The position numbers and the translations under genes are program-made. Shown here one piece after another: positions 6,794 through 27,051 of a stretch of 28,671 nucleotides of DNA. Position 1 is the first letter of the stretch; the number at the start of each line of letters is the position of its first letter. Source of the stretch: Crocosphaera sp. (GTDB lineage Bacteria > Cyanobacteriota > Cyanobacteriia > Cyanobacteriales > Microcystaceae); contig JASJDW010000039.1 of assembly GCA_030064955.1 (NCBI GenBank), positions 1 through 28,671 of the forward strand. Direction: 5' to 3'. The notes under the pieces were generated by a model that worked only from the letters and a program-made list of their open reading frames with translations, searched no databases and had not been told where the DNA came from.

Positions 6794-8673
6794 AAGATTC
6801 CTTCCTCTGTTTGACCATCCAAGGATCTTGGCGAAGTTTCGGTTAACCAACGTAGTGCCTCAATACTTTCCGCTTGAGCGGCTAATGTTGGTGACTCAAA
6901 AAGAATTCGCAAGGGAACTTCGACTTGAAACGCTTTTCCCATACGAGTGACTAATTGTGTGGCTAATAGGGAATGTCCCCCTAAGGCAAAAAAGTTATCA
7001 TTAATCCCCACTTGTTTAATATTTAGTACCTTCATCCAAATTTGCGCTAACTCTTGTTCTAGTGGCGTTCTAGGGGCAATAAACTGACGATTTACGGTTT
7101 GACTAGGAGAGGGAAGTGCTTTTTTGTCTACTTTTCCTGAAATGGTTCGCGGTAACCTCTCCATGACGACAAACGATGAGGGAATCATGATCGTTGGCAA
7201 GAATTGGCTTAAAAAGTCTTTTAATCGGGCAAATTCAAGCTCTTGGTTGAGAACAACATAAGCACAGAGATATTTATTACCATTGGTGTCGTTAATATCG
7301 ATAACAACTGCATCTTTTACCGCTTGATGTAAGCGTAAATAATCTTCAATTTCTCCTAATTCTATTCTCACGCCTCGAATTTTTACTTGTTTATCTTTGC
7401 GTCCTAAATATTCAAAATTTCCATCGGGTAAAATGCGACCAAGATCCCCTGTTTTGTAGACAATATCCGTGGGATTATTACTAAAAGGATTTGGAATAAA
7501 TACCTGATTAGTTAACTCAGGTTGTTGATAATATCCTAAAGTACGATAAGGTGTGCGAATATAAATTTCTCCTACCATTCCTATCGGAGAAGCTTGTCCG
7601 CTTTCATCAACAATTAATGCAGTTGCTCCTGTCATGGGTTTTCCAATGGGAATGGTTCGCCGTTGCTGATCTGAAGACTGAATAAAATAAAAGAATTTTG
7701 TCATGGTTGTTTCAGAAGCACCATAGAGATTCACTAATTGAATTCTGTCTCCATAAATATCACACCACCGCGCAATATCTCCACTGTAAATGGTTTCTCC
7801 TGATAAGAGAATATACTGTAAATCTGAAAATAATTGTGGCGTTAAGTCTTCATTGAGAAGGGTACGAAATAAAGAGGGAACACAGTGAATCAAATTAATG
7901 TTTTGAGCGTCTATCCATCTGACTAATTTTCTTCCATCAAGAATAGTATCTACTGAGTCTGGTACACAAACCACTCCCCCAGAACACAAAGGAAGAAACA
8001 TATCTCTGAGAAAAGCATCAAAAGATGGACTTGTTAATTGACTTACGCGAGTCGATTTTTGAATTTTTAAGGTTTCAATTTCCCAGTTAATAAAATGGGC
8101 GATCGCTTTCAGACGACCTGCTATTCCTTTTGGTTTTCCAGTTGAACCAGATGTAAAATAAAGATAGCATATATCATCGGGTTGTGAGTCAATCGTAGGG
8201 AGATCTGAAACAGAATAGGCTAAATAGTTTCCCAAGTAGCTTAGGTTTGATTTTTGGGTTTCAAACATTTGTTTTTCTCTAGAAATTAATCTGAGTTGAA
8301 AAGATTCAATTTCGGTTAAATTATTGATTTTTTCAAATCCCATTGCATCAATAATTAACCACTGCAAGTTAATGTCTGAAATAATTGTTTTAAGTCGAAA
8401 ATCAGGAAGATTTGGATCTAAGGGAACAAAAACACAGCCTGCTTTTAAAATAGCAATAATCGCTATAATAATCTCAGCCGAATCTTGAGAACAAATCCCG
8501 ATTAAAGTTCCTTTCGATGCACCCTGATCAATCAAGAAATTAGCCAGTTGATTAGATTGCTGTTCAATTTGGTCATAGGTGAAATGTCGTGATTCATAAC
8601 GAATGGCAATCTTATCATTAAACTGTGCTGCATTGTGGCTAAACCAAGCTTGAATGTGAGTTTTTTTGTCCAT
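6790..8673 (-). CDS. Stand-alone NRPS adenylation-thiolation (A-T) didomain. Its predicted substrate is an acidic (D-)amino acid.
   Basis: A domain: FTSGSTGKPKG, SPSFDAFLRDMF, LYGASETT, YKTGDLGR, GRKDKQVKIRG. T domain: ALGGHSLLA. The hand-extracted code is DARHLSLMTK. The track start at 8718 is a TTG. The first ATG (MDKKTHIQAWF) is at 8673, which is the start used here. The stop overlaps the next gene's ATG. Confidence 0.9.
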   Translation of the reverse strand: MDKKTHIQAWFSHNAAQFNDKIAIRYESRHFTYDQIEQQSNQLANFLIDQGASKGTLIGICSQDSAEIIIAIIAILKAGCVFVPLDPNLPDFRLKTIISDINLQWLIIDAMGFEKINNLTEIESFQLRLISREKQMFETQKSNLSYLGNYLAYSVSDLPTIDSQPDDICYLYFTSGSTGKPKGIAGRLKAIAHFINWEIETLKIQKSTRVSQLTSPSFDAFLRDMFLPLCSGGVVCVPDSVDTILDGRKLVRWIDAQNINLIHCVPSLFRTLLNEDLTPQLFSDLQYILLSGETIYSGDIARWCDIYGDRIQLVNLYGASETTMTKFFYFIQSSDQQRRTIPIGKPMTGATALIVDESGQASPIGMVGEIYIRTPYRTLGYYQQPELTNQVFIPNPFSNNPTDIVYKTGDLGRILPDGNFEYLGRKDKQVKIRGVRIELGEIEDYLRLHQAVKDAVVIDINDTNGNKYLCAYVVLNQELEFARLKDFLSQFLPTIMIPSSFVVMERLPRTISGKVDKKALPSPSQTVNRQFIAPRTPLEQELAQIWMKVLNIKQVGINDNFFALGGHSLLATQLVTRMGKAFQVEVPLRILFESPTLAAQAESIEALRWLTETSPRSLDGQTEEGIL

Positions 8674-8711
8674 ATTGATAAGGATAAATTGTGTTAGTTG
8701 TCGAGAAATAT

Positions 8712-9452
8712 TTAGCAATTATAATTTGCTTGAGATAGGGACAATTCAGGTAAAGTCCGAGCTAAAATAGTTAAAGGATCTAGAAAAATTTTTTCTTTTC
8801 TATTTTGATTCATCTGTAAATCCCAATATTTACTCAGTAAATGAATTTCTGTGCATCCGACAACAAACTTTTCTATATTATACTTGGTTTTTAAGGATTC
8901 TAAAATAGGAAAACACTCTTTTATTGTTCCTTGCACTTTAAGATGGTAAATCATTTGATGAATTATATTTTGATCTTCTTCATCCAGTAAAATTAGATAA
9001 TTTTTAGCCATTGGCCAAAATTCATGATTTTGAAAAATTTCTAATTTTTTCGTTCCTTTTGAACAAATCAAGAGATGTTTCTCTTTTTGCTTTAAAATAT
9101 CAATCATTATAATATCTATTAAAGAAATAATTCGCTTTTTAAATTCATCAGGAAGTTGCGGTAACAAGTAATGAGAAGTTATACAACAAATAATAATTTT
9201 TGAGACATTTAGTTGGCATAATTTCGAGAGAGTGTCAATTAATTTTTCCAAAAAATAATGATAATCTTGCTTAAGAAACACTTCGGTTCTATCAGGAAAA
9301 CTTGGATCAGAATAAACGATTATTTTAGGAAATTCTTGTTCTCGTTGCTTGTCAAGATTATATTCATATATTGTCTTTAAAAATTCTGCTGATGCTAAGG
9401 GGCCCATTCCCCCTAAAATTCCTATCATTTCTGATTGATTACTTTGTTTCAT
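8712..9452 (-). CDS. Aspartate/glutamate racemase family protein (McyF-like).
   Basis: ATG at 9452. The N-terminal IGILGGMGPLASAEF motif is present. The two catalytic-Cys motifs of PLP-independent Asp/Glu racemases are present: IIICCITSHY (compare PCNTAH) and VVGCTEIHLL (compare GCTE). Length is 246 aa. Confidence 0.85.
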   Translation of the reverse strand: MKQSNQSEMIGILGGMGPLASAEFLKTIYEYNLDKQREQEFPKIIVYSDPSFPDRTEVFLKQDYHYFLEKLIDTLSKLCQLNVSKIIICCITSHYLLPQLPDEFKKRIISLIDIIMIDILKQKEKHLLICSKGTKKLEIFQNHEFWPMAKNYLILLDEEDQNIIHQMIYHLKVQGTIKECFPILESLKTKYNIEKFVVGCTEIHLLSKYWDLQMNQNRKEKIFLDPLTILARTLPELSLSQANYNC

Positions 9453-9653: not shown

Positions 9654-12600
9654 TTAGTCAAAATCTGCATTAAAACTATCTAATAATATTTTATTTTCTT
9701 CTGTGGGAGTTATGGTTATTTCTGAGAGATTCTGATTAGCATAATTGGGGACATTTTCTATTAAGGTTTGCAATTGATCAAGCAAACGACGAACGGATTT
9801 CTCTGTAAATTGCTGAGAATTATAATCAATGACAAGCAAGAAAGTTGGATATAATTCTACAGTAACCCCAAGGGAATAATTAGTCTGAGAAAAAGATTTG
9901 ACATCTACAATTTTAATTTCTCCTTGATGTAATGATGGATCAATGGGATAATTCTCTACAGTAATAAAGCTTTCAAATAATTGGCTTTCGGGCGTTATAT
10001 CACTCCATTTTTGTATCTGAACCAAAGAATTATATTGATATTCTAAACGTTCTATCTGTTCTTTTTGAAGCTGTTTAAACCAATCTAGCAGACATAACTG
10101 AGGTTGAATAGAAACGCTAACTGGAATAGTATTAATTAATAATCCTACCATAGATTCTACCCCTACTAATTCGGGTGGTCTTCCTGATACTGTTGCACCA
10201 AAAATAATCTCATCTTCTCCACTATAACGACTTAATAAAAAGGCAAAACAACCTTGAAGTACCGTATTAAGGGTTAGATGTTGAGATTGTGTCCAATTGA
10301 TTAATTTTTCGGTTATCTCCGTTGTCAGTTGACTTTGTTCTCTTGCTTGATTTTGATTGATTTGAGTATTTTTATTAGTCAGAGGAAGTTCAATTCCCCA
10401 TTGTGTCGCTTTTTTAATTCCTTTTAGGGATTGTTTCCAGAACTTTTCGGCTTTTGAATCATTGTTTTTGTTTAACCAATTAATATAGTTTTTGTAAGAG
10501 GAAACTGGTGATAATCTGACTTTCTTCTCTTGAGATAAGCTTTGATAAACGCTAAATACTTCTTGAAAAATAATGCTATTACACCACCCATCTAACAGCA
10601 GGTGATGATGACTCCAAATTAAATAATATTGATTATCAGAGAGTCGAAATAAACTCAGACGCATTAAAGGCGCATTGGCAAAAGAAAATCCTTGTTGAGC
10701 ATCAGTTTTCAGATACTTTTCTAAGGCTTTCTCTTGAGAAGATATCGATAAAAACCGCCAATCTTCTTGATACCAAGGCAAAGAAACTTCTGAGGGAATA
10801 ACTTGCAAAGGAGTTACTAAGTTTTGCCAAATAAAAGCACTTTTTAAGCTATCATGACGGTTAATAATTGTTTCCCAAGCTAAGCGAAACTTGTCCTCAT
10901 TTAAGGCACCCGAAAGGGTAAAAACTTTTTGCTGACAGTAAAGGTTAGACTCAGCTTCATAAAGACAGTGGAAAAGTAATCCTTGTTGGAGGGGAGATAA
11001 AGGATAAATATCGGCGATCGCCGGAAATTTCAGGACGATTTTGTCTAATCTTTCTTGAGTTAAATGAGCTAAAGGAAAGTCATCAGGGGTATAATTAGGT
11101 TTACTCTTAAGACAGTCGTCAATTAAAGTTTTTAAAGTATTTATGGTATCTTGCGCTAATTTTTCTATTGTTTCTGGTTGGTATTGCCGAGAATTGTAAG
11201 TCCATTCAAAACGAGTTTGACCCTCAACTACCATAACATCAAGGGTAATACTTGATGTATGCTGTCCTAAACCACTTTTTTCGCTGCCTCGATCATCAAA
11301 TAATAAAGGAAAAATAGAGTCTTCTTGGGTAAATTGACCCAGATAATTAAAACATAATTCAGGTTGTGGTAAATTACTTAATTGAGTCCCTATTTCCTTT
11401 TGCTGATTCAGATAGCGTAACATTCCATAACCGATACCTCGATTGGGAATTTGACGGAGGGTTTCTTTGACCACTTCTAGAGACTGAGAAGGAGAAAAAC
11501 AAGGATCACAAGATAATAATAAAGGAAAACGAGTTGTAAACCAGCCCAAGGTTCGGGACAGATCGATCTCCTCAAATAATTCCTCTCTACCATGTCCTTC
11601 CAACTCTACCCAGAGATAATTGTTTCCTGTCCAGCTTTGATAAGTTTGTAGTAACCCACACAGCAATAACTCATTCATTTGAGTGCGATAATGTTTGGAA
11701 ACTTTGTGCAAAGCTGCGTCTGTGTCTTTAGCATCCAGAAATACAATTACTTTCTCGATCTTTGCCTCAACTTTGCCATTTTGTTGATGAATTCGAGGCA
11801 GATAACTAGGAGAAGCAGGAAATTGGGCTAACCAATAATCTAATTCTGATAAAATACTTTCTGATTGAGCATAATCCTTTAATTTTTTTGACCAATATTG
11901 AAAAGATGTCGTTTTCGCCCCTAACTGTATGTTTTCGCCCCGTTTTACTTGGTTATAAGCTGTATGAAAGTCTTCTAACCAAATTCGCCAAGATACCCCA
12001 TCCATCAACAGATGATGAATAATCACTAATAACCGTGCGCCTCGTTTAACCCCTAAATCAAACCATACTACCCGAAATAAGGGAGGATGCTCTAAATTTA
12101 AGCTATTTTGGACTTGAGTTGCTTGGGTTGCCAGGGTGCTAGAAAGTTCTTTTTCGGGAATATTAGAGAGATCCCGTTTAATAAATGTTATTTTCTCCTT
12201 AATTTCCCCATAATACTGTATCCAACCCGATTTTTCTGGCCGAAAAGATAATTTTAAACTATCATGATGCTCAGCTAACCCTTGAATAACAGTTTCTAAA
12301 TCAGTGACAAGAACATTGGGAGGAATATCTAGGAGAATAGACATATTCCAGTGATGAAGATTAGGAAGGGAGAGTTGAAAAAACCACTGTTGAATGGGGT
12401 TTAAAGGAACTTGACCTTGATTATCTCCTATTTGTAACTTAAACGCTTCAGTTTCAATAATTTTGGCTAATGCTGCAATGGTTTGATGCTCAAATAGATC
12501 AATCGGTTTTAATTTTAAGCCCGCTAATTTAGCCCTGGCAACAATTTGAGTACCAAGAATAGAGTCTCCCCCCAACTCAAAAAAGTTATCTTCAACACCG

Positions 12601-15600
12601 ACTTGTTCAAGATGCAGAATATCTGCCCAGATTTTGGCTAAGGTTCCCTCTTGAGGAGTTCTTGGGGACACATAAGTGGTTTCTACTTGACTTCGGGTAA
12701 TTTCAGGAAGTGGTAACTTTTGTCGATCTAATTTACCGTTGGGTGTTAGGGGAATACGATCCAAAAAGACAAAGCAGTTAGGAATCATAAACTCTGGTAA
12801 GCTTTTTTGCAAAAAATTGCGTAATTCAGAAATTTTTGGCTTATTTGTGGCATAAGATACCACATAAGCCACCAGTAATTTATTTTCATCCGTTTTTTCC
12901 CTAACCATCACCCTTGTATCTCTCACTGACGGATGATTTTTTAATTTTGCTTCCACTTCTCCTAACTCAATACGAAAACCATGAAGCTTTATTTGATGAT
13001 CAATTCTTCCTAAAAATTCAATATTCCCGTCGGGAAGATAGTGTGCTAAATCACCAGTGCGGTAGAGTCGTTGTGATAACTTTATTTTAAAATTTTTGAG
13101 GTTTAATGTTGTGGTGTGACTGGTTTGCATCTTAAATTTTGCTTCTCGATTAAACCATTCACCACGGGTAATTTTTAATTTTAAGTGACTGTTTTTAACT
13201 TTTAGGGTTAACTGTTGATTAAAGGGATGAGACTGAAAACGATCTTGCGTTAAATTTGGTTGATTGAGATAGCCACGGGCTAAATTATCGCCTCCTATAT
13301 AGATTTCTCCTGGAAAACCAACCGGAACAGGACGCAATTGAGAATCTAATACAAATATTTGGGTATTTGGTAAAGGAGATCCCAAGGGAACTGAAGCAGT
13401 GCCTCTGTCTTGACTTTCTTGTGTTACTTGATAAGTGAGAACGCCTACGGTTGTTTCTGTTGGGCCATAATGGTTAACAATTTGGCAATTTGGGGCTAAT
13501 TTTTTGACCTTTTGAACTAATTCCCAAGGGGTTGTTTCACCCCCTAAGACTAAGGTTTTTTTCGGTAAAATTTGTGATGGGTTGGGACTTTCTGAGATTA
13601 ATGCTTGTAAATGACTGGGAACAATTTTTAAATAGTCAATTCCTCTTTGTTGTGATAAATAATCCTCTAATCCTAGGGGATCTGTCATATTTTCTTGAGA
13701 AATAATGTGTAAACAACCTCCATGACATAAGGAGGGGAAAATCATGGTATTCCCTAAGTCTGCCCCAAACGTAGAAATTAATCCATAACTGGCTTTTTTC
13801 GGTAACTGAAGACGGTCTATAATTCCCTGTACATAGTTAACAAGTTGTCTATGTTCGATCGCAACTCCTTTGGGTTTCCCTGTTGATCCAGAGGTATAGA
13901 TGACATAAGCTAAATTTTCTGAGGTTACCTTTATGTCTAAATTAGCTTCACTGTAATGGGAGATAACTGTTTCATCTCCATCTAAGATAACCGTTTGCGC
14001 TGCTAAGGGGGATATTATCGATTTAAGATGTTGCTGGGTGATGACTATTTGAGCTTGGCTATTGTCTACCATGAATTTTAACCGCTCATGGGGTAAAATC
14101 GGATCTAATGGGACATAAGCTCCTCCTGCTTTTAAAATTCCTAGTAATCCTATCAAGATCCAAGGTGATCGCTCAACACAAATTCCGACACAATCATCAG
14201 GTTTGACCCCTAAATGACGTAAATGATGGGCTAATTGGTTAGCTAGGGCATTAAGCTGAGAATAAGTCAGTTTTTCTTCCTCACAAATTACGGCAATGTC
14301 TTGAGGAGTCTGTTTGACTTGAGTTTCAAAAAGATGATGAATACAGGAGTCATTTAGGGAATTTTCCAAGGAATAAGAGATTAAGCTAGGATTAAATTCT
14401 AATAAAATACGTTGCTTTTCATCATCCGTTAAAAGATCTAATTCTTCTATCTTTTGAGTTGGCTTTGCACAGGCATTCATTAATAGTGTGTAATAATTTC
14501 GTAGCCAACCTTCAATAACGTCTGAAGAAAAACTTTTCGTATTGTAGTGAAATTCAATGTCAATTCCCTGAGAATATTGTTGACAAAAAACATTCAATTG
14601 ATAAGGTTGAATACAGGAAAATTCTCGGATTAATGTTCCCTTTATTTCTCCTTGAGCAGTTATTTTATTTGAGTGAAAATCAGTTTCAAATGTAATTCCA
14701 TTTCCGACAAATTTCTCAGCTTCAGGAACAAAATAGTCTTGACATTTGCTTAATTCTTGAACTTTTTGAGAGATTTGCTGACAGAATGTAATAAAATTAA
14801 GGGATGAGTCTACAGGTGTCGACATTGGCAAATATTTTGCCATTAATCCAATACTTTGTGCTAATTCTTCGTGATGACGATTACTAGACCCTAATCCTAC
14901 CGTTACCTCTTCTTCATGAGTTAGTCTTGATAAGAATATTAAAAAGCAACTTAGAAAAAAATCTTGATAAGTAATTTGATATTTTTTAGTCAAACTTTCA
15001 AATAATTGAAAGTCTTTTTGTTCAAGGGTTAAAGTAATAAACCCAGGTTGAAAATTAGCAGCAAATTCATGATTTTTTTGAAGGGTTAGGGGCATTTTTA
15101 ATTCAAAATAACCTGACGAAGTTTGCTGTTGCCAATATTCTCTTCCTTCAGCCGTTTCTGGGGATTCTAGTAACTCATTTTGCCACTCTGAAAAATCCAC
15201 ATATTGGAATGGTTCATCGATTATATTTTCTTCTCTTTTTTGTTCATGGCAAATACTAATTTCCCTGATTAAATGCCTTAAGGAAAAGCGATCAGCTAAT
15301 AAACTTGGCAAACCAATAATCAATGTCAATTCATTAGCTGAACATTGCACTAAAGCAATTTTAAAAAGGGGCATTTTTTCGAGATTTAATGGTCTTTGTA
15401 GCAGATTTTTAAAAATAGCTTCTATTTGTTCTAATTGTTTTTCTTTTGATTCTTTTTGTAAATTATATTGCTCAATGAAGGGAACATAGCTATCTCCAAT
15501 TACTTGCAGAGGAAGGGTGCTTTCTGGCAATTTATAAAAAGTTGTCCGCAAAATTTCCAAGCGTTGAATAACCATTTGCAGAGCATTCATTAATCGCTCT

Positions 15601-15731
15601 TTATCTAGGTGTCCTTCTAACAAAAATGCCCCTTGAGTTCGATAATAATTATTAGAATTCTTGTGATTTAATAACCATAGATATTTTTGCTGAGGGGAGA
15701 GGCGAAATCCTTCTATTTTTTTAGTAATCAT
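9654..15731 (-). CDS. NRPS: His-less C-like (interface-type) domain, then A(Asp code)-T-E-C(DCL-type).
   Basis: ATG at 15731. The N-terminal C-fold domain has C1 (RLSPQQKYLWLL) and C2 (RLEILRTTF) motifs, but C3 is GLPSLLADRFS instead of HHxxxDG. A domain: YTSGSTGKPKG, FGADLGNT, NHYGPTETT, YRTGDLAHY, GRIDHQIKLHG, with code DLTKVGHVGK. T domain: ELGGDSILG. E domain: PLNPIQQWFF and HHLLMDGVSWRI. Terminal C domain: DIYPLSPLQQGLLFH and SHHHLLLDGW. Confidence 0.95.
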   Translation of the reverse strand: MITKKIEGFRLSPQQKYLWLLNHKNSNNYYRTQGAFLLEGHLDKERLMNALQMVIQRLEILRTTFYKLPESTLPLQVIGDSYVPFIEQYNLQKESKEKQLEQIEAIFKNLLQRPLNLEKMPLFKIALVQCSANELTLIIGLPSLLADRFSLRHLIREISICHEQKREENIIDEPFQYVDFSEWQNELLESPETAEGREYWQQQTSSGYFELKMPLTLQKNHEFAANFQPGFITLTLEQKDFQLFESLTKKYQITYQDFFLSCFLIFLSRLTHEEEVTVGLGSSNRHHEELAQSIGLMAKYLPMSTPVDSSLNFITFCQQISQKVQELSKCQDYFVPEAEKFVGNGITFETDFHSNKITAQGEIKGTLIREFSCIQPYQLNVFCQQYSQGIDIEFHYNTKSFSSDVIEGWLRNYYTLLMNACAKPTQKIEELDLLTDDEKQRILLEFNPSLISYSLENSLNDSCIHHLFETQVKQTPQDIAVICEEEKLTYSQLNALANQLAHHLRHLGVKPDDCVGICVERSPWILIGLLGILKAGGAYVPLDPILPHERLKFMVDNSQAQIVITQQHLKSIISPLAAQTVILDGDETVISHYSEANLDIKVTSENLAYVIYTSGSTGKPKGVAIEHRQLVNYVQGIIDRLQLPKKASYGLISTFGADLGNTMIFPSLCHGGCLHIISQENMTDPLGLEDYLSQQRGIDYLKIVPSHLQALISESPNPSQILPKKTLVLGGETTPWELVQKVKKLAPNCQIVNHYGPTETTVGVLTYQVTQESQDRGTASVPLGSPLPNTQIFVLDSQLRPVPVGFPGEIYIGGDNLARGYLNQPNLTQDRFQSHPFNQQLTLKVKNSHLKLKITRGEWFNREAKFKMQTSHTTTLNLKNFKIKLSQRLYRTGDLAHYLPDGNIEFLGRIDHQIKLHGFRIELGEVEAKLKNHPSVRDTRVMVREKTDENKLLVAYVVSYATNKPKISELRNFLQKSLPEFMIPNCFVFLDRIPLTPNGKLDRQKLPLPEITRSQVETTYVSPRTPQEGTLAKIWADILHLEQVGVEDNFFELGGDSILGTQIVARAKLAGLKLKPIDLFEHQTIAALAKIIETEAFKLQIGDNQGQVPLNPIQQWFFQLSLPNLHHWNMSILLDIPPNVLVTDLETVIQGLAEHHDSLKLSFRPEKSGWIQYYGEIKEKITFIKRDLSNIPEKELSSTLATQATQVQNSLNLEHPPLFRVVWFDLGVKRGARLLVIIHHLLMDGVSWRIWLEDFHTAYNQVKRGENIQLGAKTTSFQYWSKKLKDYAQSESILSELDYWLAQFPASPSYLPRIHQQNGKVEAKIEKVIVFLDAKDTDAALHKVSKHYRTQMNELLLCGLLQTYQSWTGNNYLWVELEGHGREELFEEIDLSRTLGWFTTRFPLLLSCDPCFSPSQSLEVVKETLRQIPNRGIGYGMLRYLNQQKEIGTQLSNLPQPELCFNYLGQFTQEDSIFPLLFDDRGSEKSGLGQHTSSITLDVMVVEGQTRFEWTYNSRQYQPETIEKLAQDTINTLKTLIDDCLKSKPNYTPDDFPLAHLTQERLDKIVLKFPAIADIYPLSPLQQGLLFHCLYEAESNLYCQQKVFTLSGALNEDKFRLAWETIINRHDSLKSAFIWQNLVTPLQVIPSEVSLPWYQEDWRFLSISSQEKALEKYLKTDAQQGFSFANAPLMRLSLFRLSDNQYYLIWSHHHLLLDGWCNSIIFQEVFSVYQSLSQEKKVRLSPVSSYKNYINWLNKNNDSKAEKFWKQSLKGIKKATQWGIELPLTNKNTQINQNQAREQSQLTTEITEKLINWTQSQHLTLNTVLQGCFAFLLSRYSGEDEIIFGATVSGRPPELVGVESMVGLLINTIPVSVSIQPQLCLLDWFKQLQKEQIERLEYQYNSLVQIQKWSDITPESQLFESFITVENYPIDPSLHQGEIKIVDVKSFSQTNYSLGVTVELYPTFLLVIDYNSQQFTEKSVRRLLDQLQTLIENVPNYANQNLSEITITPTEENKILLDSFNADFD

Positions 15732-15827: not shown

Positions 15828-16640
15828 TTAGCTCCAATAATAAATACTTTGATTATCATGAGACACAGCTAAAAAGCCGCCTATAGTAATACGCTTTTTG
15901 CTTCCAGAGACATCTGCAACTTTATGCATAATTGTACTTCCTTTAAAGATAACCATATCTCCGACATCGGGATTAAAGAGCGTTTGAGGAGATTTATCTA
16001 AGTTCTTTTTGAGGTCAGCAAAAAACTCCTTGAGTTCTTTTTTTTCTTTATCTATTTTACTCAGAAACACATCATAAATAACTAATTCTCCTCCTAATTC
16101 TGGTTTATCAATTACTAAAAAATAACTCATGGAATCAGGTAAATCTGCTTGGGTTTTCAAATAATCATAACCAGTATTATATAAAGCTTCACTACCAGTA
16201 TGGGCAGGAATTCCACCTTGCTGTGGTTGTACAAATCGAATGGTTGCTGGCGTGTAGTAATTACCATTTTCTTGAGGGATTTTTATTTTCCTTCCTCCTG
16301 AAATTTGACTAAAAACTGATTCAACGTTTGTTTCAAAATCAGTAACAAATACCTTTTTTAAAGTGGCTCTCAAATCTTTTGATTCTTGAAAATAATCATA
16401 ATCACTCATGACTTTTTGAAATAGATTGAGTCCTATAGTTTCTCCATACATCGTAGGATGTAAGTTAGTTTGATAAAATGAAAGTTTTTGGCATACCTCA
16501 TCCATTTCTTGCTGTGAAAACACCTGTTTAATAATTATTCCATGAAGCTTTTCTTGATAAATTTGAGAGATTAAATCTTGAGAGGCAGTCAAGTCTTTTA
16601 AAGAAAGTGTAAGCCAGTTTAGTTGAGTTTGTTTGTTCAT
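15828..16640 (-). CDS. Stand-alone Fe(II)/2-oxoglutarate enzyme of the P4H-like fold. It is WelO5/AmbO5-like and has His-x-Gly in place of His-x-Asp, so it is a putative halogenase.
   Basis: ATIRFVQPQQGGIPAHTGSE aligns to the P4H-type block ending pHxD, with Gly156 where the Asp should be. This is followed by SYFLVIDKPELGGELVIYD, VGDMVIFKGSTIMHKV (distal His246) and KKRITIGGF (2OG-binding Arg). The C-terminus IGGFLAVSHDNQSIYYWS and the block YYTPATIR match my recollection of WelO5. The track start at 16661 is a TTG. The first ATG is at 16640. Confidence 0.75.
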   Translation of the reverse strand: MNKQTQLNWLTLSLKDLTASQDLISQIYQEKLHGIIIKQVFSQQEMDEVCQKLSFYQTNLHPTMYGETIGLNLFQKVMSDYDYFQESKDLRATLKKVFVTDFETNVESVFSQISGGRKIKIPQENGNYYTPATIRFVQPQQGGIPAHTGSEALYNTGYDYLKTQADLPDSMSYFLVIDKPELGGELVIYDVFLSKIDKEKKELKEFFADLKKNLDKSPQTLFNPDVGDMVIFKGSTIMHKVADVSGSKKRITIGGFLAVSHDNQSIYYWS

Positions 16641-16686
16641 AATTGTTCTTAAGTTTTTCAAGATTTTTATGGGGGTTAAACTTGTC

Positions 16687-17721
16687 TTAATTTGAGTAAG
16701 ACTGCGCCATTCCTACCAGAACTTTTCGTTCACCAAGATAAGGCATTCTTCCGTGACAAACTAGCATATTATCCAACAAAAGAATATCTCCTGTTTGCCA
16801 AGGAAAAATTATGGTTTCTTGTTGATAACAATGACAAATTTCAGCAATAATGGAAGGGTCAATGGGAGATCCATCTCCGTAATAAGCATTACGGGGTAAG
16901 TCTTCTTCTTTATACTCAGTTAAAAACAAATCTTGAATTTGGGGATCTAGACTAGATATATGGAATAAGTGCGCCTGATTAAACCATATTTTTTCTTTAG
17001 TCTGGGGATGAATAGCAGTTGCTTGACAGACTTGCCAAGTTTTTAGGCGATCGCCTTCGTTCCATTGCCAGTTAATTCTCTGCTGACGACAATAGGCTTC
17101 GACGACTGATTTTTCCTCAGTCTGAAAGACATTTTGCCAACTTAAATCTAATCCTTTACTATAGTTTCGCACATATAGAATCTTTTTTTCTTCAAATTGA
17201 GCAACAAGTTTCGGGGATAGTCTTTTGAAGATTTTTCGACTGTCTGCGATCGGGGTATTCCCCCCCTCTTTCGCTGCTTTTTGGCAAAAAAAGGCTATTT
17301 TAAGCGGCCAAGTACAACTATAGGCCATTTCGTTATGTAAAGGAATCGTTTGATGAGCAGGATATTCGGTTGAGGTGTGAATTTTTTCGGTTACCTGCGA
17401 TCGTGGTGTTGAACGATAAGTATAATCTAATAAATCTCCCCAAATTATTTGAAGTAATTGTTCAAATTCTACTAGCTTTTGGAGCGGGAAATTACGCAAT
17501 AAAATGCCACCATATTGATGTAACTTTTCTTCAATAAAGTTACGGTTGATTTCTAACCAACTGCGTAAATTCAAGCCTTCTAAGGTAGGTTGAATAATTA
17601 AAGGAATCTTTTCTCTAAAATAGCTGCTTTTAATTAATCCATGAGCTTCAATGTTAACAGATTTACGCCTAACGAGGCTTAACTTTTGATGTCCTAAATT
17701 TTTGAGTTTTTGTTGAGTCAT
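16687..17721 (-). CDS. TauD/TfdA-family Fe(II)/2OG dioxygenase, SyrP-like. It is a putative hydroxylase acting on a carrier-protein-bound amino acid.
   Basis: ATG at 17721. The facial triad is intact: IPLHNEMAY (His129-x-Glu131) and LVCHGRMPY (His323). GGNTPIADS follows the triad as in TauD/SyrP-type enzymes. The N-terminal LNLRSWLEINRNFIEEKLHQYGGILLRNF is typical of NRPS-associated TauD homologues. Confidence 0.85.
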   Translation of the reverse strand: MTQQKLKNLGHQKLSLVRRKSVNIEAHGLIKSSYFREKIPLIIQPTLEGLNLRSWLEINRNFIEEKLHQYGGILLRNFPLQKLVEFEQLLQIIWGDLLDYTYRSTPRSQVTEKIHTSTEYPAHQTIPLHNEMAYSCTWPLKIAFFCQKAAKEGGNTPIADSRKIFKRLSPKLVAQFEEKKILYVRNYSKGLDLSWQNVFQTEEKSVVEAYCRQQRINWQWNEGDRLKTWQVCQATAIHPQTKEKIWFNQAHLFHISSLDPQIQDLFLTEYKEEDLPRNAYYGDGSPIDPSIIAEICHCYQQETIIFPWQTGDILLLDNMLVCHGRMPYLGERKVLVGMAQSYSN

Positions 17722-17793: not shown

Positions 17794-18357
17794 CTAGAGA
17801 TTTTTAGCTAAGTCCAATGTAAATTTTTGTTGAACACCTGTCTTGACAGAATCAGACAAATATTTAAAAACTTTACGATAGCGAAGACGGTAAAATAATA
17901 TATAAATTCCAATTTTATGATGCCAAGGTACATAATCAAATTCTTCGATAACATTTGCCATATGTAAGATAACTAAATTGAGCCATTCTGAATAACTAAT
18001 CGTGATTTTATCAGAGGTTAACCGATTAATAATACAAATTTCCGACCTTTGGTTAGGTTGAATGTCAAAATAATTTTCTCGTTGTTTACAAATGCAAAAT
18101 AAATAGACAATTTTCTCAGCTTCTTCTCCAATCGCTTCTTGTAATTCTTTTCGTTGACAAAATTTTAAAATGTAGTTTTTTTGGGTTCCTTCTGTGCCAT
18201 AAAAAGAATGAAAATACCCAGCCAAACAGAGAGTAGGAGCACATTTCCATTTTTTTAATAAATCTCCGGTTCCGACTAAATGCTCATAAAACGTCCTTTT
18301 TGTATGAACAATTCTATGGGTTTGATAAGATTTGAGCAGATATAAAACATTTTCCAT
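17794..18357 (-). CDS. Hypothetical protein with an HD-domain-like His-rich N-terminal motif. Function is unknown.
   Basis: ATG at 18357. The 187-aa ORF is co-directional and tightly packed between cluster genes. The motif string HRIVHTKRTFYEHLVGTGDLL...LAGYFHSFYGTEG resembles the H...HD metal motif of HD-superfamily proteins, but with HS instead of HD. I cannot make a confident family assignment from sequence alone. Confidence 0.6.
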   Translation of the reverse strand: MENVLYLLKSYQTHRIVHTKRTFYEHLVGTGDLLKKWKCAPTLCLAGYFHSFYGTEGTQKNYILKFCQRKELQEAIGEEAEKIVYLFCICKQRENYFDIQPNQRSEICIINRLTSDKITISYSEWLNLVILHMANVIEEFDYVPWHHKIGIYILFYRLRYRKVFKYLSDSVKTGVQQKFTLDLAKNL

Positions 18358-18407: not shown

Positions 18408-21400
18408 TTAACTGTTAGTTTTGCGTCGCATTCTTTTTAATCTTTTTTGGGCAATTCCTTCTAATTGCTCTGCTTTACCAAATTGTCTTCTTTGTTCTAA
18501 TTCTATTAGTTTTTGTTTGAGAGTAAGCAAAGGAATATTTGGATTGTCTATAATAGTTTTCAATAAACTTATAAATTGCTCGATCCAGTTTTGAATTGTT
18601 TCTGGTTTAAATAAATCTGCATTATAGGTTACAGTTAAGGTCAAATTATCTTCATTTTCTGCTAAATTCCAAGTTAAATCTCTTCGAGTTGCACCCGAAA
18701 AATTTAACACTGCTTTAACATCAAGATCGGTAAATTGTAATCCTTGACCAAATTTATCTAAATTAAATTGAACATTAATCAAAGGGGGACGACTGGGATC
18801 TCGTTTTAATTTCAATTTTTGTAAAAGTTGAGAATAGGGATAAGTTTGATGTTCATAAGCTTCTAATAGGGTTTGTTTTATATAAGCTAAATGTTGAGAA
18901 AAAGTTGTTTTTGGCTCACGAAAACGCACTGGTAATACATTAACACAATACCCGACTAATTTTTTTCTACCTGTCGCTAATTGTCCGGCTGCTGAAATTC
19001 CAATTACTCGATCATTTTGCTGAGATAAATGCTGTAAAAGCACATCAAAAATAGCCAAGAGTATCATAAATAAAGTTACTCCTTGTTGATGCTCTAAATT
19101 TTTTATTTTGTCTTTTAAACTACTCTCAATAATTCCAAATTCCTGTTTCCCTTGATAGGTTTGTATGGGAGGACGAGGGAAGTCCATGGGTAAGTCTAAT
19201 TGAGGAATAATATCATTAAATTGTTGTAACCAATAACTTTCATTCTTTGAATTATATAGATTAGTTTGGTGATTAAGAGATACATATTCACTAAATTGAT
19301 CTGGTTGTTTTAATGTGGTTTTAATTCCCTTTTTTTGTGCATTATAAAGTGCAGCTAATTCCTGCATCATAAGATCAATTGACCAACCATCTGAGATAAT
19401 ATGATGAATCGTCAATACCAACCAATGTAACTCTGAAGAAACTTTAACAATATGCCATCTTAATGGGGGATAATCACTCATATTAAAAGTTTCTTGCACG
19501 GTTTTATTTAACCAGGCTGTCATTTCAGCTAGTTCATTTTTGCTAAAATCTAAATAGGGAATTTCAATAGTATACTGAGGTAAAATTTCTTGAGTTTCTC
19601 CCTCAACATCAATTAGAATGCGTAAAGCTTCATGACGATTCACAATCGTTTGGATCGCTTGATTTAAGGCTTTAATATCTAATTTTCCTGTTAATTCTAA
19701 GCGTAATGAGTCGTTATAAGCAACTGATCCCTCTTCTTGGAGTTGTGCTAATGTCCAAAGTTGTTTTTGTGCTAACGTTAAGGGGATTTGATGACGAGAA
19801 CGAGCAATAATAAGGGATTGTTGATTAATTAAAGAACTATCAGGGGTTGGTAAAGAAATTATCTCAGTAAATCCTGTCTCTTGTAAAATTTTCTGCCATT
19901 TTTTTACGGATATCAGGGGATAAGAAGGACGTAATTCTTGATCTGTAAATTTCCACCATCCTTCTGTTAACCCAAAAATCAAATCTAACCAACGCTGGGG
20001 AGACGTTCCTTCCATTAAAATGATAATTCCCCCTGGCATTAATAGTTGATGAATATGTTTTAAACTCTGAATTAGGTTAGCGGTACTATGAATTACATTA
20101 GCGGCAATAATAATATGATAGGTCTTTCTTCCTAAGTCTTGGCTGTGGGGTTCCTGTTCAATGTCTAAACTGCCATAATGCAGACAAGAATAATGGTGAA
20201 AAACTTGTTTTGCACGGTTAATAAAGAGGGGAGAAAGGTCGGTAAAATAATATTCTACAGACGTTTGGGATAAATTAGGAACAATATAGGCAGTTGTTCC
20301 CCCTGTTCCTGCTCCTATCTCTAAAATACGGGCTTTTTCGCCTTCATTAATTGAGTCTAAAGCGAAACTAACAGTTTTTTCAATTAAAGTATTCAGAAAA
20401 ACTGCCATGGGAGATGTTTTATAAAGTTGAGTCGCAGCACTTAAGTCACCTTGAGGAAATATTAACTGTAGGGGATTAACTTTACCTTGTAATACCTCTG
20501 CTAAAGCGGAACCACAACGGTTGAGTAACGTAATTTCTGCTTGTAAAAAAGGATATTGAGTGGCAATTTCTTCTGCTAATATTTTAGATTCAATTATCTC
20601 TGGCTTTTTAATAATTTCTCCACCGGAAGGGGTAAAGTGGAAAATATCTTCTTCTGCTAAAATTTCTAACAACCGTTGCCAAAGTGAAGAAAATGAAGGC
20701 ATAATTCCCAATTTTTTCTTTATTTCTGGAGTCAATTTTTCCCCCTGAATAAAGTTGATTCCCAATTGCTCAAAAGCTTCGATGATATAGGCTAAACTCA
20801 GCTTTTCTATTTGTGCAAATCCTTGGGGATATTCCTGCAATTCTGAGTGCTGAGAAAGATGACTTATTAAAGGAAGTAAACGCCGATAAATAATGTTAGG
20901 AGATAATCGGTTTGCACTCACAGAAGAATTAATCGTTTCTTGAGTCTTTTTAGTGGGAAAAAAGCCTCCTTCTCGTAATTCTATGACACTAGATTTAATC
21001 GCTTCTTTCAAAAAATCAATATCTTCATCCGTATGTGCGCTAGAGAGAAAACAATTACGTCCTTCCCAAATATAAATGCCCTTTTCTAATAAGTGATAGT
21101 AGAGTAAATCTAAATTTTCTGGGGATGAAAAGCGAAACAATGAACCAAAATAAACAATTTTAAGAGGAATTTCCGCTTTTTCAAAATAATGATTCAACTG
21201 ATTAGCCAACTCAGTTGTCCGTCTATTTAATTGTTGTTGTAAACCTTCTCCCGCTTCTTTCAGATATTGTAAAATAGCATAAGCCCCAGCCATACCTAAA
21301 TGATTTTTATTAAAAGTTCCAGCAAAAAATGTTTTTTCGGCGCGAGGATAGGAATTATCCCCATAATTCCATTCTCCTCCATCAATGGCATCTAAATAAC

Positions 21401-24400
21401 GCGATTTACCAGCTACTACCCCAATTGGTAAACCGCCTCCTACAATTTTTCCATAAGTAACCAAATCCGCTTCAATGCCAAACCATTTTTGCGCCCCCCC
21501 TGGATGAATCCGAAATCCTAACAATACCTCATCAAAAATTAGAGGAATTTGGGCTGTTTGGGTGAAAGTGCGTAATTTTTGTAAAAAAGCTTTCGGTTGT
21601 ACATGGGGACGACGACTGGGAACCGGTTCTACTAAAACTGCGGCTAAATCATCTTGATGGTGAGATAAAATTTCTAAACTACGGGGGCTATCGTACTCTA
21701 ACATCAGCACGTCTTTGACCGCATTTTCAGTGATTCCCGCTACCATTGGAACAGTTTCCATTGTCCCGTGAGGTGCAACGGCTAAAACCCCATCAAAATG
21801 TCCGTGATAAGATCCCCTAAATAAAGCGATTTTGCGCCGTCCTGTGACAGTTCTCGCTAATCTTAGGGCTGTCATGACCGCTTCAGTCCCAGAATTACAA
21901 AATAAAACCCGTTCAACCCCTGTTAAATCTTGGATTAATTGGGCGACTTCAGCGGCTAAATTAGATTGAGGCCCAATTTGTAACCCTTTTTCTAGCTGTT
22001 TCGCGATCGCTTGACTAATAACAGGGGCATTATGCCCTAATAACAATACGCCAAACCCCATTGTAATATCTAAATATTCATTACCATCGATGTCCCAAAA
22101 TCGAGATCCCTGAGCTTTTTCTCCGACAATGGGATAAAGGAGTTCTTTGATTGAAGGGCGAAATCCAGCGACGGCTCGACTATCTGCAAGAAGAGGACGG
22201 AATGCGTTAGCTTTTGCTTTAGATTTCGCAGTTTTGGCATTATAACGCTTAATTAACTCATTTACATGGTTTTGTTGTTGAGGGGTAAAATTAACCGTTT
22301 GAGGGGTTTGTCTCCAGGTTTTTTTTTTCTCTGTTTCCGGCAAAGATAAAGAATTATTAGAATTTTGAGGAACAACGGGCAATTTTGGGGATTGATTTAG
22401 GGGTTTTCCCTGTAATAATGCCAATTGTTGAGACATTACCTCTAATTGCTGAGTAATAATTCTTTCGAGATTAGTTTCTGCTAAAGTAGAATTAAGCAAG
22501 GGCTTGGACAGAGATTTTTGACTAATTTCTTGAATTTCTGGCTTAGATGGTTCTAAAATTGGCGAAGAAGGAATTTCTTGGGCGATATGTTCTCCTAATG
22601 CTTCAATTGTTGCCCATACTTCAAATAATTGGCTAATATTAATCTTTAATCCATAGTTATTTTCAATGGCTCGCACCACATCTAATAAAACCAGGGAATC
22701 TGCTCCCATTTCTAAAAATGATTGACGATAATCTAATTTACTGGGGTCAATATCGAGTAAATTGGCGACTAAATTCCTTAATTCTTGAATAATCTGCTTT
22801 TTATGATGATTATCTTCTTCTGGTGTCAGGGGGTTATCAGTGGCTTGCTTCGGAAAATTTTGAGAGTCTGTCATAGTTTTTTGGGGATTTTCGAGATAAT
22901 TAGGAGAATTTTGGCTATATTCCCGTTCAATCTTTTCTGTTTCTTCCAGCCAATAGAATTGACGTTGAAAAGGATAAGTTGGTAAAGATAAGCGATGTCG
23001 GTGATAGTCCTGATCCCATCCTTTCCAGTTGATCTTTGCCCCTTGAACAGATAAATGAGCCATACTTGAGGCTAAAATTGTCCAATCTTCTGCTCCTTCA
23101 ACTAAAGAAGGAAGCCAAATTCCTTGCTGCCAACGTTGTCCTAATTTAGATAATATTGGTTTAGCCCCAATTTCTAAAAATAACTGGTATTTTTGCCCTA
23201 ATAATGTCTGAATTCCTTCTTTAAAACGTACTGGGTTACAGGTTTGTTGTCCCCAATAATTGCCATCAGGAATTTTATCTTCTGGCCACAATTTACCGGT
23301 TAAATTAGAAATTAAAGGAATTTTTGGCTTCTGAAAGGAAATGTCTGCCATACTGGTTTGCCATTCCTCTAAAATCGGCTCTATTAGGGGAGAGTGAAAC
23401 CCATGAGAAACCGTTAAAGGATGGTTTTTAATGCCTTCTCTCTCCAAAATCTCGATGATTTTCTCAATCGGTTCGTCTCTACCTGAAATAACCGTATTTT
23501 CTTCTCCATTTAAACTGCCGATTACGACCCAAGGAGACGATAGTTGCATTAGTATCGCTTTAATCAAATCTTCAGAGGCAAAAACAGCTACCATTCGCCC
23601 TTTTTCTGGTAAATTTTCGATTAATTTCGCTCTTATGGCAATTAATTTTAACCCTTCTTCTAACGTAAACACGTCAGCGAGACACGCAGCAACATACTCT
23701 CCTAGACTGTGGCCAATCATCGCAGCAGGTTTAATTCCCCAGGATAACCACATTTGAGCCAGGGCATATTCTAGGGAAAATAAAGCTGTTTGGGTATAAA
23801 TTGGTCTTTGAATGATATTTTGTGGAGAATCATTAGAATATAAAACAGAAAGCAAAGATTCCTCTAAATAAGGCTCTAAAATTTCCTCACAACGTTGCAA
23901 CCATCGCCGAAAAGTCGGTTGAGTTTCGTACAATTGCTTACCCATTCCCCAATATTGAGATCCTTGTCCTGTGAAGAGAAAGACCACTGGCGTTGGTTTT
24001 CGTTTGCTAAACTCTCCTGAAACGAGATGGGGATCTTTGGTGTTATTAAGAAAATTCTGTAATGAATCGCCGATTTGTTGTCGATTTTTACCAAATACTG
24101 CTAAACGCTGCTTAAAATGAGAGCGTCCTGTATTAGCTGTCCAACAAATATCCCCTAAGCTCAGATGAGCGTTATTGTGAAGAAAGTCATGGTAACGATA
24201 CGCTAATGTTTTTAAGGCAGGTTCAGTTTTAGCAGATAAGGTTAATAGGTGTTGGAGACGTTCAGGATTATTGGAGACAATAACAGACTCTGGTGCTTCT
24301 TCGAGAATGATATGACAATTCGTCCCGCCAAAACTAAATCCGCTCACCCCTGCAATCCTTTTTCCTGGTTCAGATACCCACGGTTGATTCTCTGTCGGGA

Positions 24401-25602: not shown

Positions 25603-27051
25603 TTAAATAAGTTTTTTTTGCGCTAATTTCTCAGATAAAGTATCAATATTAGGATATTCGTACATTAAAGCGGGGTTAAGGTGGTTTCCTAACCAATCAC
25701 TGAGATCTCCTATCATTCCCACCCCTTCTGCGGAGGATAAACCATAGCTTTGAAAGGAACTGGTAATGTCGATTTCTTCTTCATCTATTTCTAAGAGTTC
25801 TGCTAAATAGGCGATTAACCAAGTTTCTATTTCAGAGGAGGTGTTAGCCCGTGTTGAGGTAGACTTAATCTCATTGTTTGAGCTTTGATGGCTATTTTTG
25901 CGAGAAAGATTACCTACTAATTGGATATATTCCTCCATTGCTTCCTGGTTGCTCATTCCTCGATATTGATTCCAGGTACTCCATTGGATATACTTGCGAG
26001 GATGTAGAATAGGGTTAGGTTCGCTTTCTTGGCAATCCCCTTCAATGGCTTGTTTTTCTAGGGCATAAATGTCTAGTTTTTGTTTATCTTCAGGAATCTC
26101 GACTTGCTCGAATTTTACTTGATTTAAACAGGTTTGAAATTGTAATTCGAGATCGTTTAAATCATGTCCTTGGCGAATTAAATTATGTCCATATTTATCT
26201 TCTCCTGAGACTAATAAACAGTAATGTCGCTGAATATTATGTCCATTTTCATCAATAAAATTCCCTTGCCAACGATAAGGATAAACTTGGGTACTAGGAC
26301 GCACATAACGCCCAATAATTGCTAAACGGCGACGGTTAGAGCGATTCGGAAATGAGCGGTGCATGACTTTTTCGGTAAAAATAATGGCTTGTCCTGCTTT
26401 AATTGGAACGGTTTCTAAGGGCCAATCATTTTCATTAAAGTCATAGGAAAGGGAATATTTTTGTTCCCTTTGCCAGACAGTTTTATGGGCACTAATTCCG
26501 GCAAATACTCCTTCTTTGGCAGGAATACTAGCGGGTAACATGGGAAAGATTTTTTGATGGGAACCGTTAGCAAACTGCATACAACCATTCTCTAAGTCTG
26601 CATCGTCTAAAGCAACCCAAACTGTTAGATTAATCGAGTCTTCATTCGCATCATAAACTAGGGTTTTTTTCTGATAATCAATATCACTAGACGTATAATA
26701 TTCCTTAGCTTGATGCCATTTAATTTCTCCTTGCCCTGGCAATTTACAAAATACGTTAGTATACCATAACAAGAGATCATTTCCTGCAATTTGCTGAACT
26801 CTTTTGACCAGATCTAAATCTTGAAATAAATTAGCAATGGGTTGATGGAATAAATGTAAATCTCTTGGAGTTTCCAAATTAAATACATTGTTATAAAACC
26901 CCATGATTTCTTGTCCGTCTGCTTCAACGATCAAGCGACTATAGGTTTCTAAACAGTTTTTAGCATCAGTCAGTTTTGAGGATTCAAAGATGTCTAAAGG
27001 TCCAACCCATCCCTTTTCTTGAAAATGATTAATCTCCTTTAATGTCAACAT
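25603..27051 (-). CDS. HctB-like tridomain: PhyH-family Fe(II)/2OG halogenase (His-x-Ala), acyl-CoA-binding-protein (ACBP) domain, then ACP.
   Basis: ATG at 27051. GEIKWHQAKEYY gives His113-x-Ala115 where PhyH hydroxylases have WHQD. The distal motif is VMHRSFPNRSNRRR (His231). Residues ~300-385 (LDIYALEKQAIEGD...RKYIQWSTWNQYRGMSNQEAMEEYIQLV) align with canonical ACBP (IYSHYKQATVGD...[26 protein letters not shown]). The C-terminal carrier motif is SYGLSSAEG. Confidence 0.85.
   Translation of the reverse strand: MLTLKEINHFQEKGWVGPLDIFESSKLTDAKNCLETYSRLIVEADGQEIMGFYNNVFNLETPRDLHLFHQPIANLFQDLDLVKRVQQIAGNDLLLWYTNVFCKLPGQGEIKWHQAKEYYTSSDIDYQKKTLVYDANEDSINLTVWVALDDADLENGCMQFANGSHQKIFPMLPASIPAKEGVFAGISAHKTVWQREQKYSLSYDFNENDWPLETVPIKAGQAIIFTEKVMHRSFPNRSNRRRLAIIGRYVRPSTQVYPYRWQGNFIDENGHNIQRHYCLLVSGEDKYGHNLIRQGHDLNDLELQFQTCLNQVKFEQVEIPEDKQKLDIYALEKQAIEGDCQESEPNPILHPRKYIQWSTWNQYRGMSNQEAMEEYIQLVGNLSRKNSHQSSNNEIKSTSTRANTSSEIETWLIAYLAELLEIDEEEIDITSSFQSYGLSSAEGVGMIGDLSDWLGNHLNPALMYEYPNIDTLSEKLAQKKLI

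Follow-up and report, generated by a model that had tools for sequence, protein, structure and literature searches.

Characterized WelO5-type enzymes all come, to our knowledge, from hapalindole-type alkaloid pathways. What, then, does a WelO5-like protein do inside a cyanobacterial lipopeptide gene cluster? The question is raised by a 28,671-nucleotide stretch of Crocosphaera sp. DNA (contig JASJDW010000039.1 of assembly GCA_030064955.1, called the window throughout), in which a WelO5-like open reading frame (ORF) occupies positions 15828-16661 of the minus strand, the strand that also carries all window features discussed below. We consider it likely that the product of this ORF is an active, stand-alone aliphatic halogenase of the WelO5 structural family, dependent on Fe(II) and 2-oxoglutarate (2OG), and that it tailors what an orphan assembly line for chlorinated lipopeptides makes. 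Counted from TTG at 16661, the protein comprises 277 amino acids; a 270-residue version starting at ATG 16640 is more likely, being favored by the NCBI call on an identical protein from a Crocosphaera sp. metagenome-assembled genome (MAG) and by the N-termini of homologues. Residue numbers refer to the 277-residue version (subtract 7 for the shorter one). The protein forms one domain over residues 16-277 and has neither a carrier nor a docking domain. An initial annotation of the window had recognized a WelO5-like enzyme from several sequence blocks (GIIIKQVF, DFETNVESVF, YYTPATIR, SYFL..GGELVIY and IGGFLA..IYYWS), all of which are found in the ORF.

We compared the protein with sequence families and known structures. 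It matches Pfam family PF22814 ('Carrier-protein-independent halogenase WelO5') over the entire profile (positions 1-277 of 277, E=6.8e-75, 252.6 bits versus a cut-off of 27). Generic prolyl-4-hydroxylase-like 2OG oxygenase models (PF13640 and relatives) remain sub-threshold (18.6-22.3 bits versus a cut-off of 27), and the protein is tied to these oxygenases at the superfamily level only. A phmmer search against all PDB sequences returned WelO5 and WelO15/WelO5* entries as the sole matches (E~3.5e-34), with no sequence match to BesD/Hal-type halogenases; a scan against NCBIfam gave no model match, and neither Pfam nor NCBIfam scans matched PhyH or TIGR01762. An AlphaFold2 model calculated from 34 homologues has a mean pLDDT of 90.8, and Foldseek superimposes it on WelO5 (5iqs/5iqt) with TM scores of 0.84-0.86 and on Wi-WelO15 (6gem) with 0.82. 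The nearest fold outside the WelO5 family is that of SadA (TM 0.52-0.59), and the BesD-type enzymes HalB/HalD reach 0.44-0.47 at 12-14% sequence identity. Significant similarity to WelO5 was thus found both as a full-length profile match and in the structure database, and the proposed membership of a stand-alone WelO5/AmbO5-type family is borne out by profile, sequence and fold.

Alignment with WelO5 pairs H154 with H164, G156 with G166, H246 with H259, R257 with R270 and S179 with S189. The proximal iron ligand motif, A-H154-T-G156-S-E158 (16188-16202), corresponds to H164-V-G166-N-D168 in WelO5 and has a glycine in the carboxylate position. The distal histidine ligand is found in I-M-H246-K-V (15918-15932), the arginine for the 2OG C5 carboxylate in R257-ITIGGF (15873-15893) and the second-sphere serine in M-S179-Y-F-L (16116-16130), each in an invariant alignment column; H154, H246, R257 and S179 are invariant across the 34 homologues. 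The glycine in place of aspartate, the distal His246 and Arg257, all named in the initial annotation, therefore align residue for residue with WelO5, and the alignment extends the correspondence to the second-sphere Ser189. The annotation had also considered that Glu158 could complete a normal 2-His-1-carboxylate site. Glu158 aligns with Asp168 of WelO5, four residues after the proximal histidine (HVGND), a position that holds Glu, Asp or Gln throughout the family. Because WelO5, itself a chlorinase, carries Asp168 there, the proposal loses force; in the WelO5 structures we take Asp168 not to be an iron ligand.

The glycine is retained in orthologues from Crocosphaera, Okeania, Microcystis and metagenomes through GGT, GGA and GGC codons, and this conservation across synonymous codons indicates that it is under purifying selection. 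In clusters of this type, genes of the WelO5 family number one to four, and the ligand position of their products is occupied by Gly, Asp, Asn or Glu; the presence of Asp or Glu in paralogues of the same cluster points to functional differentiation. In the Crocosphaera, Okeania and Microcystis type, the copy beside the gene for the Asp-specific nonribosomal peptide synthetase (NRPS) is H-T-G, with an extra tandem H-V-D copy in Microcystis. In Nostocales versions, the copy beside the fatty acyl-AMP ligase (FAAL) gene is H-F-E; an H-K-G copy is also present, usually accompanied by H-K-N and sometimes by H-R-D. Three groups are resolved in a neighbor-joining tree: the WelO5/AmbO5 clade (HVGND), an H-F-E clade and a large clade that contains our protein. 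Gly predominates in this large clade, inside which Asp and Asn form subclades, and our protein, at 30-33% identity to WelO5/AmbO5, belongs to a clade separate from theirs. Its own clade is distinct and conserved, and groups predicted halogenases of the WelO5 family that belong to an orphan lipopeptide pathway unrelated to indoles.

The Asn-type paralogues (H-K-N-N-D) form a conserved clade with members from Nostoc, Anabaena, Fischerella, Calothrix and a Microcystaceae MAG. In the loci that we collected (numbered with the prefix L), they are found at L008 10001-10807 and L009 10891-11697, and as the copy next to the NRPS gene in L013, L014, L016, L020 and L022; in Calothrix the H-K-N copy is the sole non-carboxylate WelO5-family paralogue. 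We know of no description of a 2-His-1-Asn site for radical halogenases. In every cluster variant examined, one or more enzymes with a canonical triad (TauD-family or H-F-E) occur together with one or more paralogues of the Gly or Asn type, and this pairing suggests that two tailoring steps are conserved. The G/D/N/E paralogue sets, some with near-identical substrate pockets, represent a direct, nature-made test of how chlorination versus hydroxylation is controlled.

The family itself is larger than its description as a small one in the initial annotation had implied. Searched exhaustively with phmmer, a set of 1.84 billion representatives of clusters at 50% identity returned 649 relatives at E<=1e-3, 402 of them at E<=1e-10. 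Among the best 150 of the 649, the ligand position is Gly in 115, Glu in 16, Asp in 8, His in 5, Ala in 4 and Val in 1. His-x-Gly is therefore the default state of the WelO5 family, with the indole-alkaloid enzymes forming a minor branch, and this raises the number of candidate halogenases. At least one group of relatives is from Bacteroidota (H-C-G, about 35% identity). In Scytonema hofmanni UTEX 2349 we found a gene of the WelO5 clade proper (L025 9995-10882; HVGND, 358.8 bits to PF22814) in another non-indole setting: it is flanked by two large NRPS genes, glycosyltransferase genes and a JmjC-type cupin gene, a context that is not hapalindole-like.

Is the window a chlorinating pathway, and could its substrate be an indole alkaloid? 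Pfam scans of the window proteins revealed no cyclase, Rieske, prenyltransferase or isonitrile genes, whereas a true WelO5-type locus used as positive control (L024, Fischerella sp. PCC 9431) has HpiC1-like cyclase, Rieske and O-methyltransferase genes. The lipopeptide polyketide synthase (PKS)/NRPS setting without indole-terpenoid machinery, as first annotated, is thereby supported, and a FAAL/PKS/NRPS context that lacks cyclase, Rieske and prenylation genes argues that the substrate is not a hapalindole-type alkaloid. The gene at 25603-27051 encodes a three-domain PhyH-ACBP-ACP protein resembling HctB, whose H-Q-A motif (26707-26715) aligns with the HxA of SyrB2/CytC3; its top NCBIfam match is TIGR01762 'chlorinating enzyme', below the curated cut-off (116.8 versus 226.3 bits). 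The HctB-like neighbor already proposed is hence confirmed in its domain structure, and an HxA enzyme of this kind in the cluster indicates that the pathway is a chlorinating one. The two halogenases of the window had also been called structurally unrelated. This description has to be corrected, as both are Fe/2OG enzymes of the cupin/double-stranded beta-helix fold, although from different families.

We infer the catalytic activity, the chlorination outcome and the substrate of the protein from these comparisons and from its genomic context. Fe(II) would be held by His154 and His246, by analogy to WelO5; 2OG would chelate the iron, with Arg257 holding its C5 carboxylate; and chloride would occupy the third facial site, because Gly156 offers no carboxylate. 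Reaction with O2 and decarboxylation of 2OG would generate a cis-chloro-Fe(IV)-oxo species, which would abstract hydrogen at an unactivated sp3 C-H bond. Ser179 would help to position the oxo group such that rebound transfers chlorine instead of hydroxyl. More tentatively, the substrate may be a pathway intermediate or product that combines a chlorinated beta-amino fatty acid with Asp, the residue loaded by a stand-alone adenylation-peptidyl carrier protein (A-PCP) and a Tyr-like residue, with the Asp probably beta-hydroxylated by the TauD-family enzyme encoded next to our ORF. We favor action on a free or released lipopeptide or on an N-acyl-amino-acid intermediate, in the manner of WelO5. 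That a cluster may hold as many as four paralogues likewise speaks for a larger scaffold with several sites to be modified. Placed in a lipopeptide rather than an indole-alkaloid pathway, the enzyme probably chlorinates a new kind of substrate. Free-standing Fe/2OG halogenases are sought for late-stage C-H chlorination.

The substrate pocket is consistent with such a shift. WelO5 positions 81, 88 and 161 are experimentally established determinants of substrate scope. At WelO5 positions 81/82/84/88/90/161 (V/A/I/A/V/I) our protein has Y72/G73/T75/N79/F81/I151, with only the isoleucine at position 161 in common, and the whole lipopeptide clade has Tyr or Phe, Gly and mostly Thr at positions 81, 82 and 84. 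A pocket that differs in this way from that of WelO5 presumably accommodates another substrate, which may be more polar or lipid-like. In Microcystis, the H-T-G and H-V-D paralogues are encoded by overlapping tandem genes (L007 9196-10032 and 10001-10900; also in L003 and L010), and their pockets are nearly identical at the same six positions (F/G/T/S/S/I versus Y/G/T/S/S/I). The two proteins look like a natural halogenase-type/hydroxylase-type pair acting on one substrate. The corresponding laboratory exchange, the G166D variant of WelO5, is available in the PDB as 5iqu and reportedly hydroxylates instead of chlorinating.

Several points weigh against a halogenase that acts on a lipopeptide. 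Identity to WelO5 is about 30%; iron ligands and pocket were compared by alignment, and in three dimensions another carboxylate might reach the iron; and Ser179 is equally invariant in the HxD/HxE paralogues and hence does not discriminate between the two activities. Since HxG is the family default and assays cover the hapalindole clade only, the motif predicts halogenation by analogy only. The substrate assignment comes from synteny alone, and our literature search turned up neither a report of WelO5 homologues in lipopeptide clusters nor one that ties the cluster to a product. The protein could accordingly be a hydroxylase, desaturase or other oxidase despite its His-x-Gly motif, the iron site being completed by water/hydroxide or by a remote carboxylate. 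2OG halogenases often hydroxylate as a side activity, engineered WelO5* variants both chlorinate and hydroxylate non-native substrates, HxG may lose its diagnostic value beyond the clade that has been assayed, and an acidic residue, Glu158, is placed only two residues past the glycine. We nevertheless regard this explanation as improbable, because the chlorinase WelO5 has an acidic residue at the same place, because the glycine is maintained by purifying selection and because a 2-His-1-Gly/Ala site marks all known radical halogenases. In addition, the Microcystis pair with its near-identical pockets differs precisely in Gly versus Asp, which is hard to explain if both enzymes hydroxylate.

A more serious competitor concerns the substrate. 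The Asp-specific module directly downstream begins with a C-like domain (14382-15731) that lacks the HHxxxDG motif (LPSLLAD at 15291-15311) in the window and in all 12 of 12 homologues (LPSLCAD-like), whereas the four other condensation (C) domains are canonical. This domain looks like a candidate 'interface' domain for the recruitment of trans-acting oxygenases, an identity derived from the missing motif and its position rather than from comparison with reference interface domains. In siderophore NRPSs, interface domains recruit trans-acting Asp beta-hydroxylases, so that a carrier-tethered substrate is a live alternative for our enzyme to the carrier independence assumed in the initial annotation: recruited by the His-less domain, it could chlorinate PCP-tethered Asp or the lipopeptidyl chain, beside or instead of the TauD-family enzyme. 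The arrangement of an active C domain, a C-like domain, A(Asp) and PCP together with a TauD-family enzyme is that of the beta-hydroxy-Asp modules of lipopeptide siderophores, and the Asp-NRPS gene is always abutted by a WelO5-like gene. Nostocales clusters retain the C-like domain and have WelO5-family paralogues only, with no TauD gene between PKS and thioesterase (TE); these loci were extended via the asparagine synthase (AsnB) gene and covered as far as the PKS end. An Asp A-domain insertion of about 45 residues, rich in lysine (LKVKNSHLKLKITRGEWFNREAKFK...; 13071-13205, between motifs A6 and A7), is kept in Crocosphaera, Okeania, Microcystis, L004 and L005 and is not found in the Nostocales versions; it is restricted to clusters with a TauD gene and an H-T-G orthologue and may be a docking element. 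Enzymatic 3-chlorination of Asp also exists in nature, as catalyzed on the free amino acid by AspX, a member of another family, and SadA, the nearest non-family fold, acts at the beta carbon of N-acyl amino acids. Against this stands that the WelO5-family enzymes characterized to date all act on free-standing substrates and that interface domains have been described for TauD-type partners only. Up to four paralogues per cluster cannot share one Asp beta carbon, and a chlorinase and a TauD-family enzyme acting on the same carbon would compete. The absence of TauD in Nostocales, moreover, covers the span from PKS to TE only, and the interface label depends on a missing motif and a position. On balance we consider a carrier-dependent enzyme unlikely, though a possibility to be reckoned with.

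A bolder version of the same idea, to which we give somewhat less credence, holds that the WelO5-family proteins of the cluster are the first carrier-protein-dependent members of their family, docking on the His-less C-like domain and chlorinating or hydroxylating PCP-tethered Asp, with the H-x-G enzyme producing beta-chloro-Asp. If this doubtful proposal were true, beta-chloro-Asp could provide a cryptic leaving group on the way to a ring (either an aziridine or, with the aid of the AsnB homologue, a lactam), and the G/D/N/E paralogues, including the conserved His-x-Asn clade, would be a ready-made evolutionary series for the switch between halogenase and hydroxylase.

We compared the favored reading, a stand-alone halogenase acting on a free substrate, with known systems. 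WelO5, AmbO5 and Wi-WelO15 (5iqs, 5iqt, 5j4r, 6gem, 8acv) share with our protein PF22814, the fold (TM 0.82-0.86), the His-x-Gly...His ligand set, the 2OG-binding arginine and the second-sphere serine, and they are likewise cyanobacterial, stand-alone, single-domain proteins of about 270-290 residues. They differ from it in clade and sequence (30-33% identity), in having V-A-I rather than Y/F-G-T at positions 81/82/84 and in lacking a FAAL/PKS/NRPS context. HctB, SyrB2, CytC3 and the CurA halogenase domain resemble the predicted chemistry of our enzyme, that is, Fe/2OG-dependent radical chlorination with a vacant carboxylate site in a cupin superfold and in NRPS/PKS pathways. In contrast to our protein, they are PhyH-like, have HxA instead of HxG and require or carry a carrier domain. 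SadA, an N-succinyl-L-amino-acid beta-hydroxylase (3w20/3w21), acts on N-acylated amino acids that resemble the N-terminus of a lipopeptide, at 15-17% identity to our protein; it is however a hydroxylase and not a Pfam WelO5 member, and presumably has a canonical 2-His-1-carboxylate iron site. BesD/HalB/HalD and AspX are stand-alone Fe/2OG halogenases of free polar substrates, with a remote structural likeness to our protein in the case of HalB/HalD. AspX makes 3-chloro-L-Asp from free Asp and is placed in the CurA-related cluster of the 2026 radical-halogenase atlas. AspX and BtnX from this atlas were considered as kin of our protein and rejected, the CurA-related cluster being a family other than WelO5. 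The AspX product is of relevance here, as the NRPS module adjoining the WelO5-like gene is Asp-specific. Cupriachelin, potashchelin and the cyanochelins share with our cluster a FAAL-primed lipopeptide, an extra C-like domain before the Asp A-domain and a trans-acting TauD-family enzyme. For these siderophore systems, unlike for our cluster, no halogenase of the WelO5 family or of the HctB-like type is known, nor an aminotransferase PKS, a racemase with a stand-alone A-PCP, or AsnB.

What assembly line would supply the substrate? The eleven large ORFs of the window are all on the minus strand, in a transcription order that runs from FAAL (28635) to AsnB (628). The FAAL (27067-28635) has its N-terminus cut by the window end, as its AMP-binding match begins at profile position 53; it also has a DIP2-like domain, and homologues are 573-629 residues long. 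It precedes the HctB-like halogenase and a PKS/NRPS hybrid (18408-25589) with the Pfam architecture KS-AT-ACP-aminotransferase-methyltransferase-C, whose terminal C domain has the active-site motif HHIISDG. This hybrid is predicted to make a beta-amino (methylated) fatty acyl unit. A 187-residue DUF6817 protein (17794-18357; PF20680, 89 bits) is encoded between the PKS and the TauD gene and is present in the Crocosphaera and Okeania cluster versions only. The TauD/TfdA-family dioxygenase (16687-17721; PF02668, 145.5 bits) has a canonical H-N-E triad (17329-17337), the HxE of which aligns with 1y0z, and is the predicted Asp beta-hydroxylase partner. Its gene adjoins the WelO5-like gene in Crocosphaera, Okeania, Microcystis and L005, and a search for TauD homologues returned a huge subfamily with an identity plateau at 55-61%.

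Downstream of the WelO5-like gene, the NRPS at 9654-15731 has the domain order C*-A(Asp)-PCP-C-C, where C* denotes the C-like domain without HHxxxDG. It is followed by an Asp/Glu-type amino-acid racemase (8712-9452; PF01177, TIGR00035), the stand-alone A-PCP (6790-8718), a terminal NRPS module (2627-6850; docking domain-C-A-PCP-TE) and a glutamine-hydrolyzing asparagine synthase homologue, AsnB (628-2511; TIGR01536, 459 bits). Codes of the A-domains were extracted at the GrsA-PheA positions. We take the code of the first NRPS, DLTKVGHVGK, to be the classical Asp code and that of the terminal module, DASTIAAVCK, to be Tyr-like; some Nostocales Asp modules carry the Asn-like code DATKMGHVGK. The code of the stand-alone A-PCP, DARHLSLMTK, is identical in every cluster examined, and its DARH prefix brings to mind the D-MeAsp module in microcystin synthetase. 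The pairing of this A-PCP with an Asp/Glu-type racemase is similarly reminiscent of the McyF/D-MeAsp logic in microcystin synthesis. Five C-like domains versus three A domains suggest that the stand-alone A-PCP is used in trans. AsnB shares 74-80% identity among clusters and 60-63% with ordinary-looking asparagine synthases of Acidobacteria, and may supply Asn or amidate Asp without exotic chemistry.

To place the window among related clusters, we gathered loci from homologue-bearing contigs and from a scan of one genome per species. The gene set consists of FAAL, the HctB-like halogenase, the aminotransferase-PKS, one or more WelO5-like genes, the Asp-NRPS, the racemase, the A-PCP, the Tyr-like TE module and AsnB, with TauD in some versions. 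It was found in Crocosphaera, Okeania sp. KiyG1, Microcystis, several Nostoc strains, Anabaena CCY 9613, Fischerella PCC 9431, Rivularia UHCC 0363, Calothrix CCY 0018 and several metagenomes, that is, in at least eight cyanobacterial genera. Gene order in Okeania sp. KiyG1 is that of the window, and the Asp-NRPS gene is directly downstream of a WelO5-like gene in all variants, despite rearrangements. The AsnB orthologue of the cluster is present on more than 100 Microcystis contigs, which indicates that the cluster is common in this genus. Our finding also points to a predicted family of polychlorinated lipopeptides that has so far escaped discovery in cyanobacteria of environmental importance, including bloom-forming Microcystis.

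Known clusters did not provide a counterpart. Those for microginin, puwainaphycin, cyanochelin and hectochlorin were rejected because their architectures are not known to combine AsnB, a racemase, a stand-alone A-PCP and WelO5-like genes. The fischerazole (fsh) cluster of Fischerella PCC 9431 was also rejected, as it encodes CylC homologues together with an ArzI homologue and an NRPS that forms a thiazole. The fischerazole paper mentions a second multi-halogenase biosynthetic gene cluster in this strain (Fig. S21). On scaffold KE650771.1 of Fischerella sp. PCC 9431, we found the lipopeptide-type locus L020 (6269867-6290634), with three WelO5-family paralogues, within ~25 kb of L024 (6295473-6316264), the hapalindole-type cluster with a true WelO5-type gene. 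Locus L010 (JBIPMW010000343.1), from a MAG labelled Crocinitomicaceae bacterium, is colinear with the Microcystis loci L003 and L007 and has the same identity to the window as these; the contig probably stems from Microcystis and ended up in a Bacteroidota MAG through mis-binning. In Nostoc PCC 9305 and Rivularia, a gene for a LanM-like class II lanthipeptide synthetase (DUF4135 and LANC_like domains) is located right after the TE module (L030 19237-21881; L031 18990-21881).

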